From an uncultured delta proteobacterium (GTDB lineage: Bacteria > Desulfobacterota > Desulfobacteria > Desulfobacterales > Desulfosalsimonadaceae), in the NCBI GenBank assembly GCA_963826785.1, contig CAWGYD010000004.1, positions 96,001 to 160,000 on the forward strand: a stretch of 64,000 nt of DNA, written 5' to 3'. A program made the translations under genes and the position numbers. A model generated the notes under the pieces. The model was given only the letters and a program-made list of their open reading frames with translations, was not told the DNA's origin and did no database searches. Positions within the stretch are counted from its first letter, which is position 1, and each line of letters opens with the position of its first letter. Positions 7,936 to 27,296 of the stretch are shown here, in pieces.

Positions 7936-8670
7936 TTACTCCACCGTCCCCCGGACATTGATGGTTAAATCCGGCCGGATCGGGCTGTCGGTCTGAAGAT
8001 GGATTTTTCCCATGTACTTGACGGGCGCCTGGGCGGTGCTTTTTGCAGTGACGATATATTTCCCTTCCACCTGGCGGATATCGACAACGGATAGCTTGTC
8101 TGCGAGGATATCGTCCACGGATGACCCGTTGATCTTAAACGGATATTGGGGCCGGGGAGTGATGGCGATATCAAAGGTTTCACCGCTTCCAGGAGCGGTC
8201 TTGATCCGCAGCGCCCGGGGATCCATTTCCGCGAATTTTTCCACGTCGCCTTCGATGTATAAATAAAAGACGCCTTTGTCCGGATCATTGCTGGATACCA
8301 GTATCTTTCTGGAAAAATTCTGCCCGCCGTACCCTTTGGTGTCCATGGTAAAAGTGATTTCTCCTTCCTCGCCGGCCGGGATCTCTTTGGGATAAGCCGC
8401 GGTGGTGCATGCGCATCCGGTGATGATGTCCCGAATTTCGAGGGGGAGGCTGCCGGTGTTTTTCACGATGAAGGTATGATCAAACCGGGTTCCGTCCACC
8501 ACCGGGGAAAATTCAAATACCTGCTGGGGGATTTCCGCCACCGGCCGTTTGGCTATTTTTTCGGCCTGCAGATAATCCGGCAGGGGCTGGTCATTTTCAC
8601 CGGCAAATGCCGAGGCCGGAATGATCAGGCAAAAAATCGTCATCCATATTTGAAACGTACGCATTTTCAT
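7936..8670 (-). CDS. Secreted DUF1573-type Ig-like protein (Cys version)
   Basis: Signal peptide ending AFA; F..KNTG..PL.I..I.TGCACT..IPAGEEG; NDP motif. Confidence 0.8.
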   Translation of the reverse strand: MKMRTFQIWMTIFCLIIPASAFAGENDQPLPDYLQAEKIAKRPVAEIPQQVFEFSPVVDGTRFDHTFIVKNTGSLPLEIRDIITGCACTTAAYPKEIPAGEEGEITFTMDTKGYGGQNFSRKILVSSNDPDKGVFYLYIEGDVEKFAEMDPRALRIKTAPGSGETFDIAITPRPQYPFKINGSSVDDILADKLSVVDIRQVEGKYIVTAKSTAQAPVKYMGKIHLQTDSPIRPDLTINVRGTVE

Positions 8671-14418: not shown

Positions 14419-15638
14419 GCCGATCTGCATTTTCTGAAGCGCAGAACCCTTTTGATACTCGCGGCAGCTGCATGGGTTCTGTTTTTGCTGACCCCGGGCG
14501 ATGATATCGCGCTTGCCGAAGGCGGGCATGCATCCCTGGTGCGGATGGATGAGGCCGATATTCCCGTGTTCGTCGATGATTTGATGTACCAGCACCTGAC
14601 CGATTGTATCGACGGAAGCATTTCTTATTTCAAAAAGCTGCCGGAACAGACCCGTATCCTGTACGGGCGGGATGCGTACACGGCGGCTCACATGGTAAAA
14701 TCCCTTGAATGCTTTGCCGAATTTATCCGCACCGGCCCCGCCCCCCTGCCGCTGAGCGATTTTATCCGCAGGAATTACCGGGTCTATGTATTTTCAGAAG
14801 ACGATGCCGGCGTCCCCGTGCTGTTTACCGGCTATTACCTGCCGCAGCTTGCGGGCAGTCTTCTGCGCACGGACAGATTCTGCCATCCCGTGTACGGCCG
14901 GCCCCAAGACCTGGTCGTGATCCCGCAGCCGGATCTTTCGAGTGCCGGCAAAGACCGCGAAACCATCGGCCGGAAAGTCGGCAGCCAGGTGGTCCCCTAT
15001 TACACCCGCCGGGAAATCGAGGAGGGAAGGGGGGCTGAGACACTGAGGCCCATTGTGTGGGTGGATGATCCTGTGGATCTGTTTTTCCTGCACATCCAGG
15101 GATCGGGTTCGGTCCGGCTGCCGGGGGGCGATCTGTTACATCTTCATTTTGACACCACCAATGGTCAACCCTACCGCAGCATCGGCAAGTACCTGATCGA
15201 AAATGGAAAAATGAAAAAGGAACAGGTCTCCATGCAGTCCCTTCGGGCGTATTTGAAAGCACATCCGGAGGAGATGAACGACATCTTCAACTCCAATGAC
15301 CGTTACGTCTTTTTTAAGAACTTCAGACCGGGGGGCCGTGGGATGTTACGACATCGAACTCACCCCGGGGCGGTCTCTTCGCCGCCGACCGCCGCATCTG
15401 TCCGCCGGCCGGGCTGGTCTACATGGAAGCGCAGAAGCCGGTAAATGCGCCCGAAGGCAGAAAACCCGAGTGGATCGATTGCTCGCGGTTCATGGCCAAC
15501 CAGGATACGGGCAGCGCCATCACCGGTCCCGGCCGGGCGGATATCTTCTGGGGAAGCGGCCCCTATGCGGAAATGGCCGCCGGCTATATGAAACATCCCG
15601 GCCGCCTGTTTTTCCTGGTGCTGAAGCCGGAGGAGTAA
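14415..15638 (+). pseudogene. mltA: Membrane-bound lytic transglycosylase MltA, frameshifted (pseudogene or sequence error)
   Basis: FTGYY, LHIQGSG, RYVFF in one frame; LTPGRS in the next; QDTGSAI.GPGRADIFWG in a third. Confidence 0.8.
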
Positions 15639-15706
15639 AGAAATCGTTCACGTGCACAGATCCTTTGTGGCGGTACAATCTTTTTTGAATTGCCGAACGG
15701 AAAAGC

Positions 15707-16847: not shown

Positions 16848-17915
16848 TCACTCCTGGGGAGGCATTGCCGGCAGGGTGGTCCGTGAAGGATTGACGCCCA
16901 GCATGACGGAGATCCAGCGGGTCTCTTCGTTGCTCTCCAGCGCAATTTTGATGATCATGGTCAGCGGCACGGACAGGAGCATTCCCACCGGCCCCAGCAC
17001 CCATCCCCAGAACACCAGGGACAGGAAAACCACCAGTGTGGACAGTCCCAGTCCGCCTCCCATGAACCGGGGTTCAAGGATGGTGCCGAATACGATGTTC
17101 ACCCCTAAAAATCCGGCGGTGGCCAGCAGCGCATGCAGCAGTCCCAATTGCACCAGGGCCAGCAATACCGCCGGAACCGCCGCCAGGATCGACCCGATGT
17201 TGGGAATGTAATTGAGCAGAAACGCCAGCAATCCCCACAGGAGGGCAAAATCAACTCCCAGAATGGCCAGCCAGGCAAACACGGCCAGCCCGGTGAGCAG
17301 GCTGAAAATCGTCTTTAATGCCATGTACCGGTTGACGCTTTCCATGAACCGGCTGAAGCCGGAAAGTGATTTTTCCGGCGATTTGAGGGCGCTTCGGATC
17401 TTGTTGGGAAAACCGGCCGCTTCCAGCAGGATGAAGATGACCGTCAGCAGGATCAAAAAGGCGTTGGTCAGCGCGCCGCTGAGCCCCGTGAGGGTTTTGG
17501 CCGCCATCTGCATGGCGATGCTCGGGTTTAAGGTTTTGCGCAGCATTTCATCGGTGATCTCGATTCCCATCCGGGCCAGCCATTTCTGAAAACTGGCCGA
17601 CTGAACGATGAGCATTTCCCGATAGGTGGGAATTGAATTGGTAAAATCGTCCACGCTGCTTCCGACGAACCGGGCAATTCCGTACCCGATGGCGACCATG
17701 CAGGCGATGATAAAAATGATGGCCACGATGCCGGGCACGCCTTTGCGCTGAAGCCAGAAAAGCGGCGGGGTGAATATGATGGCGATGAAGACGGACAGCA
17801 GAAAAGGGATCAGCAGATCGGCCGCATTTTTCATCCCCGCGACGATGACCACAAAACATGCCGCCGCAATCAGAAAGGTGACGCCCTGGGATAAGCCGGT
17901 GGTGTTTTGTTCCAT
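16848..17915 (-). CDS. AI-2E family transporter
   Basis: FLLNYIPNIGS, LEPRFMG, FWGWVLGPVGMLLSVPLT. Confidence 0.92.
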   Translation of the reverse strand: MEQNTTGLSQGVTFLIAAACFVVIVAGMKNAADLLIPFLLSVFIAIIFTPPLFWLQRKGVPGIVAIIFIIACMVAIGYGIARFVGSSVDDFTNSIPTYREMLIVQSASFQKWLARMGIEITDEMLRKTLNPSIAMQMAAKTLTGLSGALTNAFLILLTVIFILLEAAGFPNKIRSALKSPEKSLSGFSRFMESVNRYMALKTIFSLLTGLAVFAWLAILGVDFALLWGLLAFLLNYIPNIGSILAAVPAVLLALVQLGLLHALLATAGFLGVNIVFGTILEPRFMGGGLGLSTLVVFLSLVFWGWVLGPVGMLLSVPLTMIIKIALESNEETRWISVMLGVNPSRTTLPAMPPQE

Positions 17916-18228
17916 CCTGTTTTCCAATCGTGTGCGTGTTTCGTTTTATGATCTTGAAATATTGCGCCTGAAATGCCTGAAACGAAAAATCATGGATTTT
18001 GGGCTTTGAGACCAGGGCCGTCATTATGGGCCATAGATCCGCTTTGCCTTCAGATAGTTAATATCAGAAGCGATCTCCCCGCGCAAGCCCCATGACGCCC
18101 GGAGTTATTCACTTGACAGAAAACCCGATATCCCTTATGTGTTCAGGAAATTGTGCAAAGGGCGTTCGGCAGAGGCGCGCCGTTCTCCTGCATATGGTAA
18201 AATTTCAACAACATCGAAGAGGTATGGT

Positions 18229-18960
18229 ATGAAACACAAGATGCGTTTTACCGGTATCATGATCCTGATGATCATACTGGTCTCCGGAATGGTCACTTTG
18301 GCATTTGCCGAAGGACAGGTACCCAAGGCGGTCGCCGAATCCGATTCGTACGATTTCGGCATGGTGGCCGAAGGAAAAACCGTGAAGGCCGATTTTGCCA
18401 TTAAGAATACCGGCAATGCCGACCTGGTCATCAAAGAAGTCAAAACCGGGTGAGGGTGCACCAAAGCGGCTTCTCCCGATAAGCCGATCCCTCCGGGCGA
18501 GGAGGGAATCATTTCAGTACTGGTGGAAACAAAAGGTTACGGCGGCAAAGATCTTCACAAAACCATCCGGGCAATTACCAATGACCCGGAAAACAACGAA
18601 ATAAAACTCAATATCAGCGGCAAGGTCAGCCAGCTGGCCACCATCGAGCCCAGCCGGGTGAACCTGACCGGGTATGTGGGCGAATCCATCACCCGGACCG
18701 TCAAGATCATCCCGGAAGGCAAGACCGCCTTTAACATCTTGAAAATCACTCCCCAGCTGGGGACGGACATTTCCGTGTCTGTAAACGAAAAGGATGAATC
18801 CGGCCAGAAGGTCTATGAATTGACCGTGGCGAACACCAAGCAGACTGAAGGCCGGTATTACGACAAGATCATCATCCTGACCGATCAGAGTGATTATCCC
18901 CCGCTGACCATCGTGGTCACCGGCTACATCCGGCCCAAACCGGAAGAAAACAAGGGCTGA
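18229..18960 (+). CDS. Secreted DUF1573-type protein with in-frame TGA at 18451-18453 (probable selenocysteine)
   Basis: One frame across the TGA: VKTG*GCTKA aligns with ITGCACTTA of the paralog at 7936-8670; hairpins follow the TGA. Confidence 0.8.
18467..18509 (+). promoter_or_regulatory. Candidate bacterial SECIS hairpin(s)
   Basis: CGGCTT-CTCCCGAT-AAGCCG starting 13 nt after the TGA, then TCCCTCC-GGGCGA-GGAGGGA. Confidence 0.5.
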
Positions 18961-19580
18961 TGGGCCGATACCGGGTACTGGCCTTCGACTGCGACGGGGT
19001 GATGTTCGATACGCAAAAGGCCAATTCCGCGTACTATAACGACATCCTGGCAAATTTCGGCCGGCCTCCCATGACGCCGGACCAGTATGCGTATGCCCAG
19101 ATGCAGACGGTGGACCGGGCGATTGCCCACCTCTTTGAAGATGAGGATGCCATTGCCGCGGCCCATGCTTTCCGCAGAACAAACGGGTACGACCCGTACA
19201 TCCCCATGATGGAAATGGAGCCGGACCTTGTCCGGCTCCTTGATTTCTACCGGGGCAGGATTTATCTTACCGTGGCCACCAACCGCTCCGACACCATGGG
19301 CAAGGTTTTAAAAATCCACGGCATCGAAGACTATTTCGACCTGGTGGTCACCGCCTTGGATGTGCCCCGCCCCAAGCCGCATCCGGATCCGCTGCAAAAG
19401 ATCCTTGATCATTTTGACGTGCCGCCGGATCAGATGCTGTACGTGGGGGATTCGAAGCTGGATGCGCTTGCGGCCCGGGCGGCCGGCGTTCCCCTGGCGG
19501 CTTACGACGATCCGGACCTGGACGGCGATTACCATATCCAGCGTTTGAGTCAGCTCTACGATATCTTAAATTCCTCATAA
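18960..19580 (+). CDS. HAD family hydrolase (phosphoglycolate phosphatase-like)
   Basis: FDCDGV, VATN, KPHPD, YVGDS. Confidence 0.92.
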   Translation: MGRYRVLAFDCDGVMFDTQKANSAYYNDILANFGRPPMTPDQYAYAQMQTVDRAIAHLFEDEDAIAAAHAFRRTNGYDPYIPMMEMEPDLVRLLDFYRGRIYLTVATNRSDTMGKVLKIHGIEDYFDLVVTALDVPRPKPHPDPLQKILDHFDVPPDQMLYVGDSKLDALAARAAGVPLAAYDDPDLDGDYHIQRLSQLYDILNSS

Positions 19581-19584
19581 GCCC

Positions 19585-22260
19585 ATGACAGAAAAAAGAC
19601 CCACCCTCTATCTCATCGACGGCACCGCCTATATCCACCGGGCCTATCATGCCATCCGCAGCCTGGCCACCTCCAAAGGGTTTCCTTCCAATGCGGTGTT
19701 CGGGTTCACCCGGATGCTGATCAAGCTGATGAACGAAAAAAAGCCCGGGTATGCGGCCATGTTTTTTGATTCCAAGGGGGCCACCTTCCGGCATGATCTC
19801 TATGCCGACTACAAGGCTAACCGGCCGTCCATGGCCGATGACATGGCCGTGCAGATTCCCTACATCAAAGAAGTCACCCGGGGGTTTGGTCTTCCCATAT
19901 ATGAACAGCAAGGTTTTGAAGCCGACGACCTGATCGGCACCCTGGCCAAAAAGGCGGAGCAGCAGGGGTTTTTCGTGGTCATGGTCACCGGCGACAAGGA
20001 TTTCGTCCAGCTGGTGACGGACAACATCATTATCTGGGATCCCATGAAAGACCTGCTCATCGACCCCGGGTCCGTGCGGGAAACCTACTGTATCGAACCG
20101 CAGCAGATGGCCGACGTGCTCGGGCTGGCCGGAGACGCCTCGGACAACATTCCCGGCGTGCCGGGCATCGGCCAGAAGACCGCCCTCTGCCTGCTCCAGA
20201 CGTACCGGGACATGGATGACCTGTACGCCCGCATCGATGAGATCAAGTCGGCCAAGCAGAAGGAAAAACTCCTGGCCCATGAGCCCCAGGCCCGTCTGAG
20301 CCGGCAGCTGGCCACCATCCACACCGACTGCCCCGTTGACCTGGACATAGACGCCTTTACCTACCGGGGTCCGGACAACACCAGGCTGGCGCATCTGTTC
20401 AAGGAGCTTGAATTTCGGCAGCTGCAGAAGGATTACCCCATTTCTTCCGATCTGTCCAAAAAGAATTACCACACCGTACGGGATGAACAGGGATTGTCCG
20501 CGCTGGTAAAAGAGATCGAAAAGGCGGGCATCTGTGCGCTGGATACCGAAACCACGGCTCTGGACACCATGACTGCAAATCTGGTGGGGCTTTCATTCGC
20601 CGTGCGGCCGGATGAAGCCTGGTATATCCCCTGCGGACATGACCCGGCAGAGGATCAGCTCGATCTGGAGGTGGTGCTGACGGCGCTGCGGCCGGTGCTG
20701 GAAAACGCCGATATTGTAAAGGTCGGCCAGAATCTCAAGTATGACTGGACGGTGCTCAGGCGCCATGGGGTCGAGCTGTGCGGGAAGATTTTCGACACCA
20801 TGCTGGCATCCTACCTGCTGAGCCCGGAAAAGCGGGCCCACAGCCTGGACCAGATCGCCATCGATTACCTGGACCACAAGATGGTCTCCTATGAGGAGGT
20901 GATCAAGGCGGCCGGCAAGGTGGATAATTTTTCACAGGTGGGTGTGGAAGCGGCCACCGATTATTCATGCGAGGATGCGGACTGCACGCTGCTGGCCTAT
21001 GAAAAATTCAAGCCGATGCTCGAATCCGCAGGGCTTGCCCCTCTCTTTGATACCGTGGAAATCCCCCTGATTCCGGTGCTGATGAAAATGGAGATGACCG
21101 GCATCCGGGTGGACAAAGACCGGTTAAATGAATTGTCCAAGGATTTCTCCTTCCAGCTGGAGCAGACCTGCAAGCAGATCTATGCGATTGCCTGCTGTGA
21201 ATTCAACATCAACTCCTCCCAGCAGCTGGGCCAGATCCTGTTTGAGCAGCTGAAACTGCCGGTGGTGAAAAAAACCAAGAAAAAAACCGGGTATTCCACC
21301 GATGTGGAGGTGCTCACCGAGCTTTCGGTCCGGCATGAACTGCCGGCCCTGGTGCTGCGGCACCGGACCCTGAGCAAACTGAAATCCACCTATGTGGACG
21401 CCCTGTTCGGCCTGATCAACCCCGAAACCGGAAGAATCCACACTTCCTTCAACCAGACCGTGACCGCCACCGGTCGCCTGTCCAGCTCCCAGCCCAATCT
21501 CCAGAACATCCCCATCCGCACGGAAGAGGGCCGGGATATCCGGCGTGCGTTTATCCCCCGGCCCGGGTGGCAGTTCATATCCGCCGATTACTCCCAGGTG
21601 GAGCTACGGCTGCTGGCCCACTACTCGGATGATGAAATCCTCATCGATGCATTTTTAAAAGATGAAGACGTCCATACCCGCACCGCCGCGGAGGTGTTCG
21701 AAGCCCTCCCGTCCATGATCACGCCGGACCTGCGGCGCCAGGCCAAGGTGATCAATTTCGGGATCATCTACGGTATGGGTGCTTACAGCCTGGCCAAGGC
21801 GCTCAACATCTCCCAGAAAATGGCCAAGACCTACATCGATCATTATTTCAGGCGGTACAAAGGCGTAAAAGCTTTCATCGACGAGAGCATCGCCATAGCA
21901 CAGCAGACCGGAAAGGTGGAGACGGAACTGGGCCGCATCCGGTTCATCCCGGATATCAACAGCAATAACGTCAACCTGCGGAAATTTGCCGAACGCACGG
22001 CGGTGAACACACGGATTCAGGGGACGGCCGCGGACCTGATCAAACTGGCCATGATCCGGATGGACAAAGCCCTTTCGGAGCGAAATCTCAAATCCGCCAT
22101 GCTGCTTTCCGTCCATGACGAACTGGTGTTTGAAGTCCCGCCCGAGGAAATGGAGAGGGTAAAGGCACTGGTGAAAGAAATCATGGAAAATATCTGGGAA
22201 TTCAAAGTGCCCCTGAAGGTGAATGTGGCCGCAGGAGATGACTGGGCAGAGGCGCATTAA
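19585..22260 (+). CDS. polA: DNA polymerase I
   Basis: 5'-3' exonuclease (EADD, GDASDNIPG), DTET, TGRLSS..PNLQNIP, ADYSQVELR, NFGIIYG, VHDEL. Confidence 0.98.
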   Translation: MTEKRPTLYLIDGTAYIHRAYHAIRSLATSKGFPSNAVFGFTRMLIKLMNEKKPGYAAMFFDSKGATFRHDLYADYKANRPSMADDMAVQIPYIKEVTRGFGLPIYEQQGFEADDLIGTLAKKAEQQGFFVVMVTGDKDFVQLVTDNIIIWDPMKDLLIDPGSVRETYCIEPQQMADVLGLAGDASDNIPGVPGIGQKTALCLLQTYRDMDDLYARIDEIKSAKQKEKLLAHEPQARLSRQLATIHTDCPVDLDIDAFTYRGPDNTRLAHLFKELEFRQLQKDYPISSDLSKKNYHTVRDEQGLSALVKEIEKAGICALDTETTALDTMTANLVGLSFAVRPDEAWYIPCGHDPAEDQLDLEVVLTALRPVLENADIVKVGQNLKYDWTVLRRHGVELCGKIFDTMLASYLLSPEKRAHSLDQIAIDYLDHKMVSYEEVIKAAGKVDNFSQVGVEAATDYSCEDADCTLLAYEKFKPMLESAGLAPLFDTVEIPLIPVLMKMEMTGIRVDKDRLNELSKDFSFQLEQTCKQIYAIACCEFNINSSQQLGQILFEQLKLPVVKKTKKKTGYSTDVEVLTELSVRHELPALVLRHRTLSKLKSTYVDALFGLINPETGRIHTSFNQTVTATGRLSSSQPNLQNIPIRTEEGRDIRRAFIPRPGWQFISADYSQVELRLLAHYSDDEILIDAFLKDEDVHTRTAAEVFEALPSMITPDLRRQAKVINFGIIYGMGAYSLAKALNISQKMAKTYIDHYFRRYKGVKAFIDESIAIAQQTGKVETELGRIRFIPDINSNNVNLRKFAERTAVNTRIQGTAADLIKLAMIRMDKALSERNLKSAMLLSVHDELVFEVPPEEMERVKALVKEIMENIWEFKVPLKVNVAAGDDWAEAH

Positions 22261-25292: not shown

Positions 25293-27296
25293 TTATCGGA
25301 TATTCAGCGCCGCCAGAAATCCCCCGTGAATGGCATCGTTGATTTTACCCGGCGCAATGCAGTCTCCCACGCAGGTGTGGGCAAGGCAAAGGCCCTGAAC
25401 CGCCCTGGACAGCGTCTGAACCGGGCGGGAGCCGGCCGCCAGGATGATGGAATCAAACTGTTTCGAATTTTTTTCCCCTTTGACGTCAAAATGCACGGTT
25501 TTGTCTTCAATGCGGCTTACCGTGGCCTCCGTCAAAATGGTGACCCCGTAGCGGGCCAGTTTGTCCATCAGCACCCAGCGGGTGGATCGGCCCACATCCT
25601 TGCCCGCCCGGGGGAGCATCTCAAATACCGTCACCTTCGAAGTCCCTTCAAACATCAGCGCTTTGAGCCTCTCGGGCGGTTCGGCATCGTATTCAAACAG
25701 AAACTGCAGGATATCGGGGGTGAGCGTCCCTTTGGCGGCGGCAAACAAGGCGGTCTCCAGCCCCACGGCCCCGCCGCCGATGACGGCCACTTCTTTTCCA
25801 AGGACCGGGTTGTCCTTCATCACCTGCCAGGAGGACATCACCGCGGCACTGTCCGCCCCCTGGATGGGCGGCATCAGGGGTTTTGCCCCTTCGGCGATGA
25901 TCAGGTAATCCGGGTTGGCGTTTTGAATAAAATCCGGGGTGACTTCGGTATTGAGAAAAACGGGGATGTCGTATTTGTTGACCATGGCCCGGTAGTAGCG
26001 GATGAATTCGAACAATTCCTGCTTGTGGGGCGGCGCGCCGGCAATCCAGATCTGTCCGCCGATGTCGCCGTCCTTTTCATAGACTTCCACCCGGTGTCCC
26101 ATCTGAGTTGCGGTGACGGCGGCCTCCAGGCCGGCGAGTCCCGCCCCGATGATCATGACCCGTTTGGGCGCATCGGTTTGAACGATCTTTCGCTCTTCCT
26201 CGAACCCGGCCTGGGGGTTTCCGGCACAAAACACCGGCATGCCGGCAAAGATCTGGTCCGTGCACCCCTGGGAGCAGGCGACACAGGGACGGATTTCATG
26301 GGCCTTGCCGGAAAATGCTTTTTGGGGCCAGTAGGGATCGGCGATGAGCACCCGGCCCAGGTTGACCATGTCCGCGCACCCGTCTCTGAGCATCTTTTCG
26401 GCTGAATCGGGATCTGCAATCCGGTTGGAGGCCATCACCGGCAGGGATACCGCTTTTTTGATATTCAACGCCAGGTAGGAAAAGGCCCCCCGGGGCAGTT
26501 CCATGGGAAGCTGGGGCACCTTGGTGACGTGCCACCCGCCGGTGACATTGAGTGCATCCACACCGGCCTGTTCATAGGCTTGTGCGATGAGCGGGGTCTG
26601 TTCGTCCGTGTTGCTCCCCGGCACGAAATCGTTTCCGGCCATGCGGATGGTGAGCGGTACATCGGGGCCCACTGTTTTTCGGGTCAGTTCCAGCACCTCC
26701 ACGGGAAATCGGAGCCGGTTTTCAAAGCTTCCGCCGTAGCGGTCCTGGCGCTGGTTGGTCAGCGGGGAGAGAAACTGGGTCAACAGATACCCCGCCGATC
26801 CGATAATCTCCACCCCGTCAAAGCCGGCTTCAACTGCCCTTACGGCCGCCCGGGCAAATGCGTCCTTGACCCGTTCGATATCCTCTATGGTCATTTCCCG
26901 GGGCGTGGTTTTGGAATAGGTGCAGTAAATCGCAGACGGTGCAATGGGGGTCTGGTTGTTGATCAGCATGGGATGGGAAAAGGCGCCGGCGTGAAACAGC
27001 TGAATCCAGGCCCGGGCCCCTTCGGCCCTGATCAGGCCGGCCAGTTTCCGGAAAGAGGGGATGGCTTCATCGTCGGCAATGGACAGCGCGGCCAGCCCGG
27101 CTCCCAGATCATCGATTCCCACAGGCCCCACGGTGACCATGCCCGCCCCGCCACGGGCCTTTTCCCTGAAATAATGATAATACCGGTCATTTAATTTGCT
27201 GTCATAGGAGTACAGCAGACCCAGGGCCGGATAGGCGATCCGGTTCTTGATTTCCATGCGGTTGATGGTGATCGGGGAAAAAAGGGTTTTATACAT
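25293..27296 (-). CDS. NADH:flavin oxidoreductase, 2,4-dienoyl-CoA reductase-like (OYE barrel, 4Fe-4S, FAD)
   Basis: QLFHAG, GYLLTQFLSP..NQRQDRYGGS, CVACSQGC..C, IIGAGLAG, IGGGAVG. Confidence 0.9.
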   Translation of the reverse strand: MYKTLFSPITINRMEIKNRIAYPALGLLYSYDSKLNDRYYHYFREKARGGAGMVTVGPVGIDDLGAGLAALSIADDEAIPSFRKLAGLIRAEGARAWIQLFHAGAFSHPMLINNQTPIAPSAIYCTYSKTTPREMTIEDIERVKDAFARAAVRAVEAGFDGVEIIGSAGYLLTQFLSPLTNQRQDRYGGSFENRLRFPVEVLELTRKTVGPDVPLTIRMAGNDFVPGSNTDEQTPLIAQAYEQAGVDALNVTGGWHVTKVPQLPMELPRGAFSYLALNIKKAVSLPVMASNRIADPDSAEKMLRDGCADMVNLGRVLIADPYWPQKAFSGKAHEIRPCVACSQGCTDQIFAGMPVFCAGNPQAGFEEERKIVQTDAPKRVMIIGAGLAGLEAAVTATQMGHRVEVYEKDGDIGGQIWIAGAPPHKQELFEFIRYYRAMVNKYDIPVFLNTEVTPDFIQNANPDYLIIAEGAKPLMPPIQGADSAAVMSSWQVMKDNPVLGKEVAVIGGGAVGLETALFAAAKGTLTPDILQFLFEYDAEPPERLKALMFEGTSKVTVFEMLPRAGKDVGRSTRWVLMDKLARYGVTILTEATVSRIEDKTVHFDVKGEKNSKQFDSIILAAGSRPVQTLSRAVQGLCLAHTCVGDCIAPGKINDAIHGGFLAALNIR

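Follow-up and report, generated by a model that had tools for sequence, protein, structure and literature searches.

The locus and its reading frame

The window (the whole stretch of DNA analysed, 64,000 nucleotides) carries on its plus strand, at 18229 to 18960, an open reading frame of 243 codons whose single internal stop is the TGA at 18451 to 18453, codon 75; two same-frame fragments split only by this codon had already been described in the initial annotation of the DNA. Reading through the TGA yields K-T-G-U-G-C-T, where U is selenocysteine (Sec). As had also been proposed, the TGA falls on the first Cys of the CxC motif of a paralog elsewhere in the window, which reads C-A-C; the placement of that paralog and its Cys motif stand, but it lies on the minus strand, which the annotation omitted. 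Judged from sequence, the gene at 18229 to 18960 is a genuine selenoprotein gene with good support, and its family is known (Table 1).

Table 1. Features of the selenoprotein locus and its paralog (positions in the window)
Feature	Positions	Strand	Remarks
Shine-Dalgarno-like GAGGT	18219..18223	+	5 nt upstream of ATG; seen in sequence
OS_HP2/DUF1573 selenoprotein gene	18229..18960	+	243 aa with TGA75 as Sec; Pfam DUF1573 match; NF041425, 127.5 bits
Probable export signal peptide	18229..18309	+	Judged by eye; basic start, then a hydrophobic core, closing in A-F-A
Domain 1, DUF1573 / ASH-PapD-like Ig fold	18334..18627	+	Residues 36-133; U-G-C in loop between two strands; Pfam, model, fold searches
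Sec-Gly-Cys motif TGA-GGG-TGC	18451..18459	+	Sequence and relative loci
Hairpin 1	18467..18486	+	Usual SECIS position; loop CUCCCGAU, no G among first two positions
Hairpin 2	18488..18507	+	Loop GGGCGA, 41 nt past UGA, coded by I-P-P-G-E-E-G
Domain 2, second Ig-like beta-sandwich without Cys	18637..18933	+	Model, fold search
HAD-family hydrolase	18960..19580	+	ATG overlaps selenoprotein stop; conserved downstream neighbour, HAD cluster downstream in 41 loci
Cys paralog, same family	7936..8670	-	244 aa; C-A-C; without tandem hairpins; NF041425, 116.2 bits

The selenoprotein stop and the HAD start share the sequence TGATG at 18958 to 18962, and the polA start follows the stop of HAD by 4 nt (19580 to 19585). 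Neither a sigma-70-type promoter nor a terminator was found over 17900 to 18300, and Rfam returned zero matches over 17900 to 19100. The terminal TGA was considered as a second Sec codon and rejected, because the HAD start overlaps it and the frame closes again after 13 codons. A 151-nt DNA piece (run X1) spans 18312 to 18462 without a difference; it ends 9 nt past the TGA, at depth 3, may not be independent and is left uncounted.

The arrangement recurs in relatives, with priA upstream and the HAD hydrolase and polA downstream; the gap to the HAD gene is mostly -20 to +16 nt, and Cys versions of the gene are arranged likewise. Around the 139 genes examined, no redox or metal gene recurs as a neighbour, and the neighbourhood (priA, HAD, polA) gives no redox clue. 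Speculatively, termination at UGA75 under selenium shortage could be polar on HAD and polA.

A further member of a catalogued family

Both copies match Pfam DUF1573 (PF07610) and exceed the curated cut-off (100 bits) of the NCBIfam profile NF041425, OS_HP2, and the U-G-C motif of the Sec copy lies inside the PF07610 domain. A 2007 study (PMC1976440) introduced six new families, among them OS_HP2 with 2 genes, and a DUF1573 domain-containing protein with the motif UGC is tabulated as a selenoprotein in two reviews that cite the 2007 Olavius symbiont paper (PMC9312934, PMC13188914); we equate the two names based on the NCBIfam match and the shared citation. Whether this family has a place in the selenoprotein catalogues had been left open; these entries, together with NF041425 itself, answer with a yes.

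As far as the parts of these sources consulted go, the protein is thus a further member of a family predicted since 2007, for which the literature gives a prediction and no characterisation. It shares the U-G-C motif, the broad lineage and the Cys homologs of the published family and differs from it in nothing at the protein level; the tandem-hairpin signal described below is absent from the published descriptions consulted. In the 2007 paper, the text states that all six new families had SECIS-like stem-loops, and the figure legend covers drawings for five of them, OS_HP2 omitted (PMC1976440). One BSepDB supplementary file has no DUF1573 or OS_HP2 row (PMC13326102), and the sections seen of PMC10434189 and PMC13326102 give no function for the family.

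A search for loci with the single protein as query returned 1 locus only. A third paralog in the source genome carries a C-C motif, E-G-C-C-G, in place of C-x-C (L003, G000:C6:190209-190832, minus strand), a form seen in 9 of 150 collected family genes. Sec and Cys copies of the family stand in tandem in three genomes (L110, L117 and L128; genomes G125, G114 and G029).

Evidence that codon 75 encodes Sec

Is the TGA a Sec codon? Among the 29 best relative loci, all from other genomes, the column of codon 75 holds TGA in 27 and TGC in 2, so the in-frame TGA at this conserved Cys position recurs across independent genomes and is not peculiar to the source assembly. The protein has matches in 39 of 41 genomes near the source genome; across the order, 113 of 121 genomes have a match, and across the phylum 95 of 251. 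The frame downstream of the hairpins is under purifying selection: of 10 close pairs, 9 give a dN/dS of 0.04 to 0.24 and the last gives 0.55; the three pairs that contain the gene itself are near dS saturation and weakly informative. Within the common spacing class of TGA genes, all 84 have G after U and 83 of the 84 have C after that, and on a quick tree we count at least 14 Sec/Cys switches. The Sec recoding first proposed from the window is supported by an in-frame TGA that is conserved where the family otherwise has Cys, by selection on the frame that follows it and by the use of Sec in the lineage, and codon 75 almost certainly encodes Sec on this comparative evidence.

Two hairpins downstream of the UGA

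The two hairpins that had been reported within about 55 nt of the TGA are present. The 57-nt fold of this gene alone is unexceptional against dinucleotide shuffles (z -1.54; 18 of 200 shuffles fold as well). With synonymous-codon shuffles, hairpins 1 and 2 of the Sec gene give p values of 0.01 and 0.007, versus 0.54 and 0.48 for the matching windows of the Cys paralog.

The comparison was extended to 150 non-redundant genes, of which 139 have U/C-x-C and a downstream Pro-Gly: 93 TGA genes and 46 Cys genes, the latter deliberately over-sampled. Left out of the counts were 11 of the 150 (9 with the C-C motif, 1 without the first Cys and 1 without Pro-Gly) and 2 motif-less domain matches. Both hairpins reach at least 4 expected pairs in 68 of 93 TGA genes versus 2 of 46 Cys genes. 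Scored with 300 synonymous shuffles for each gene, hairpin 1 reaches p ≤ 0.05 in 66 of 93 TGA genes versus 2 of 46 Cys genes; for hairpin 2 the counts are 45 of 93 and 3 of 46, and the z score of hairpin 2 lies below 0 in 92 of 93 TGA genes versus 24 of 46 Cys genes. A TGA copy that reads U-G-L, its second Cys lost, keeps both hairpins (L129:2404-2466, minus strand).

The two elements differ in form. Hairpin 1 starts 8 to 15 nt past the UGA (11 nt in 40 of 93), with its loop at 13 to 19 nt; its pairing register varies among genes, and its loops have no common sequence. An early loop G is present in hairpin 1 of 10 of the 93 TGA genes and in hairpin 2 of 87. The loop of hairpin 2 lies 37 to 42 nt from the UGA, a distance that becomes 16 to 25 nt (mean about 20) once the span of hairpin 1 is subtracted. 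We scored the canonical SECIS form as a G in the first two loop positions and a loop 16 to 37 nt from the UGA, using our own script written after the published rule rather than bSECISearch; 11 of the 93 TGA genes pass, as do 6 of the 46 Cys genes, and the gene at 18229 to 18960 fails.

Compensatory changes exceed those of 500 of 500 shuffles, mostly in hairpin 1 (7 of 7 pairs) and few in hairpin 2, and the covariation score of the structure slid by -1 is close (0.181 versus 0.204). RNAalifold recovers 3 pairs of hairpin 2, none of hairpin 1 and no two-hairpin consensus, which we attribute to the shifting register of hairpin 1. On quick trees, the independent Sec/Cys pairs on well-supported branches number 5, all in the same direction and too few for significance (median p 0.0625). 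Protein sequence constrains the GG of hairpin 2 as well, which is conserved at 95% in Cys genes too, so its conservation is no proof of SelB binding.

Other selenoprotein genes of the lineage served as controls. The canonical test was passed by 21 of 21 selD genes (those of 24 loci that match the search pattern), with the G loop at 19 to 20 nt in 18 of them, where a Pro-Gly codon pair usually encodes it, and a selected second hairpin in 1 of 21. In the two fdhA genes of the genome, GG loops lie 18 nt from the UGA, and G loops are found in 2 genuine mvhD genes, 3 of the 5 hits to the mvhD pattern being spurious. The tandem form is thus, on these comparisons, particular to the OS_HP2 family and not to the SelB of the lineage. 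Measured against the canonical bacterial SECIS as described in the part of PMC13188914 consulted, the OS_HP2 signal is likewise an in-frame stem-loop downstream of the UGA, and hairpin 2 has a loop of 3 to 9 nt with the early G; in contrast to the 16 to 37 nt given there, its G loop lies at 37 to 42 nt, behind a hairpin without that G, and 82 of 93 genes fail the rule. In total, there seems to be a family-wide, Sec-linked signal of two hairpins that breaks the canonical SECIS rule.

How the two hairpins may work

How might such a signal be read? We posit that the constraint is set by the protein. Among the residues shortly after Sec is a conserved Tyr or Phe, with codons starting UA or UU, which would tend to exclude a loop-start G at the normal 18 to 20 nt. 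Instead, the CC-GG of the Pro-Gly codon pair, at about 39 to 42 nt, would serve as the SelB-binding loop, and hairpin 1 would fold about 19 nt away, bringing loop 2 to an effective distance near 20 nt, as in the selD genes of the lineage. In this model, the OS_HP2 genes would form a distinct class of bacterial SECIS, in which a sequence-free spacer hairpin puts a GG-loop hairpin about 20 nt from the UGA, where SelB canonically expects it. We offer that class tentatively, and hold it about equally tentative that hairpin 2 is the SelB binding site. That both hairpins are needed for Sec insertion is somewhat better favoured, and we lean towards it.

Could hairpin 1 suffice? It begins at the usual place, is tied to Sec more tightly than hairpin 2 (66 versus 45 of 93) and shows the clearer compensatory changes, all of which would suit a mechanism in which Sec is inserted with hairpin 1 alone as the SECIS, its loop lacking the G, and in which hairpin 2 is a helper (a ribosome pause or a folding guard) or a codon by-product of IPPGxEG. 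We regard this as possible but somewhat doubtful, given that hairpin 1 loops share no sequence and seldom have an early G, while selD (21 of 21), fdhA (2 of 2) and mvhD (2 genes) of the lineage use G loops, and given that hairpin 2 is tied to Sec as well, as its z scores in TGA and Cys genes indicate.

Fold, export and possible function

Based on its N terminus and a structure model, the initial description of an exported, Ig-like UxC protein appears sound. A crude hydropathy rule finds a hydrophobic N-terminal stretch in 89 of the 93 TGA homologs. The model, built from 104 sequences (pLDDT 96.6), has two beta-sandwich domains, with the motif in a short inter-strand loop of domain 1. By sequence, the PDB yields 2qsv only, from Porphyromonas gingivalis, rows for troponin being noise. 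By fold, the nearest matches listed are ASH/PapD-like Ig domains, among them those of VesB (4lk4; Z 12.5, rmsd 2.0 over 97 residues) and Hydin (2e6j; Z 10.9, rmsd 2.1 over 100 residues). Identity to these ASH/PapD-like Ig domains (Hydin, VesB, 2qsv) is 11 to 18%, and fold likeness alone shows no function; the matched domain of 2qsv has the same fold without the CxC.

Precedents for a redox motif of this kind come from elsewhere. CsgC has an Ig fold and a CxC with an E0' of -139 mV, and the parts of PMC3173608 consulted support for CsgC and the DsbD N-terminal domain a periplasmic Ig-like sandwich with C-x-C in a loop; neither CsgC nor nDsbD is among the fold-search matches listed, the analogy is functional only, and the OS_HP2 protein differs in having two Ig domains and Sec. 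MauE, as described in the part seen of a preprint, has a CGC active site and occurs in the same phylum (bioRxiv 10.64898/2026.03.05.709764). By such analogy, we give an envelope thiol-disulfide redox role for the Sec protein an even chance. After export, U-x-C would form a reversible selenenyl-sulfide, envelope proteins may be its substrates for thiol-disulfide oxidoreduction or isomerisation, and domain 2 may be a binding or spacer module.

Export and a two-ligand loop motif would also suit an envelope protein that binds or delivers a metal (Cu, Hg or Ni), with U-x-C as ligands and not as a redox switch. We think this unlikely: no metal-handling gene recurs next to the 139 genes, no His, Met or additional Cys stands in a column with conservation of 90% or more, and in 68 of 93 TGA genes the region counted is free of any other Cys. 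An Ig module with a role in structure or adhesion, its Se-S bond serving only to stabilise the loop, would accord with closest folds that are nonenzymatic and ASH/PapD-like (Hydin, the VesB Ig domain, chaperones) and with the Cys-free 2QSV domain of the same fold, but it appears improbable: through 14 or more Sec/Cys changes on the tree, Sec is kept along with an RNA structure whose presence goes with altered amino-acid choices in that stretch, which is hard to reconcile with an inert bond. Sec is usually catalytic.

As a whole, the best explanation, and in our view a probable one, is an exported OS_HP2/DUF1573 protein with Sec at codon 75 and a tandem-hairpin signal, to which a redox role in the envelope can be added at even odds.

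Sec machinery of the source assembly

The initial annotation had named selA, selB, selC and selD as genes whose presence would bear on the claim, and the outcome is mixed: tRNA-Sec (selC) is present, selA is present although split over two frames by a frameshift whose break lies beside a G run (L035, G000:C3:45512-46608), and selB and selD were not found in the assembly, which is 87.8% complete. Near-complete relatives have selB in 33 of 33 genomes and selD in 32 of 33. In relatives, selB often stands with tsaD, purM and mltG, and selD with uvrA and pdxA; none of these five has a counterpart in the source assembly, and tsaD is normally essential. Because these usual neighbours are missing too, the absence of selB and selD looks like an assembly gap rather than a true loss. 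Frameshifts also affect 2 of 68 other genes tested, plus yedF and mltA; the latter, at 14452 to 15690 of the window, shifts near 15400, its C-terminal part continuing in another frame, and this is probably an assembly indel.

Other TGA genes of the genome include two encoding FdhA with R-x-U-H-S and four of the MvhD family, the motif scans for TGA selenoproteins across the genome being mostly noise except for these two groups. True loss of Sec in the source strain was rejected on the missing neighbours of selB and selD and on the intact state of these other TGA selenoprotein genes. It is very improbable that the strain's TGA is a real stop in a fresh pseudogene left by decay of the Sec machinery, or an assembly error, as the absence of selB and selD and the frameshifted selA might suggest, given the missing selB neighbours (tsaD, purM, mltG) and selD neighbours (uvrA, pdxA), the frameshifts in further genes, the several other intact TGA selenoprotein genes and the fact that TGA is the common state among relatives.

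Three observations lie beside this argument. An in-frame TGA follows a long open frame in N-L-A-G-G-U-G-S-K-I, with stems further downstream (G000:C3, minus strand, near 25914), and by its sequence is a probable further selenoprotein. Some relatives have a second, divergent SelB-like open reading frame (L229:9220-11220, G013:C108:97974-99851, G039:C31:144350-146230), near selD in L229. Two matches to the MvhD family contain two in-frame TGA codons (G025:C7:154988-155356, G007:C314:14426-14794).

Implications

Gene callers that halt at the TGA would truncate the OS_HP2 protein to 74 residues. What is new here is the recoding signal, a candidate that comes with 93 natural examples, Cys-type negative controls and testability by short synonymous mutations. 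In the literature searched, largely papers outside subscription, we found no account of a tandem or noncanonical bacterial SECIS of such form. Reviews hold that uncharacterised classes of bacterial SECIS must exist (PMC13326102, PMC13188914, as far as consulted), and the portion seen of PMC13326102 gives a canonical SECIS for 87.4% of catalogued bacterial selenoprotein genes. If the spacer model is true, the rules for SECIS prediction would be wider, and Sec could be placed in recombinant proteins without forced residues right after it. For the bacteria themselves, Sec would be encodable even where protein sequence works against a G at the usual place in the loop, and a spacer class could explain some of the catalogued bacterial selenoprotein genes without a canonical SECIS, which make up 12.6%.
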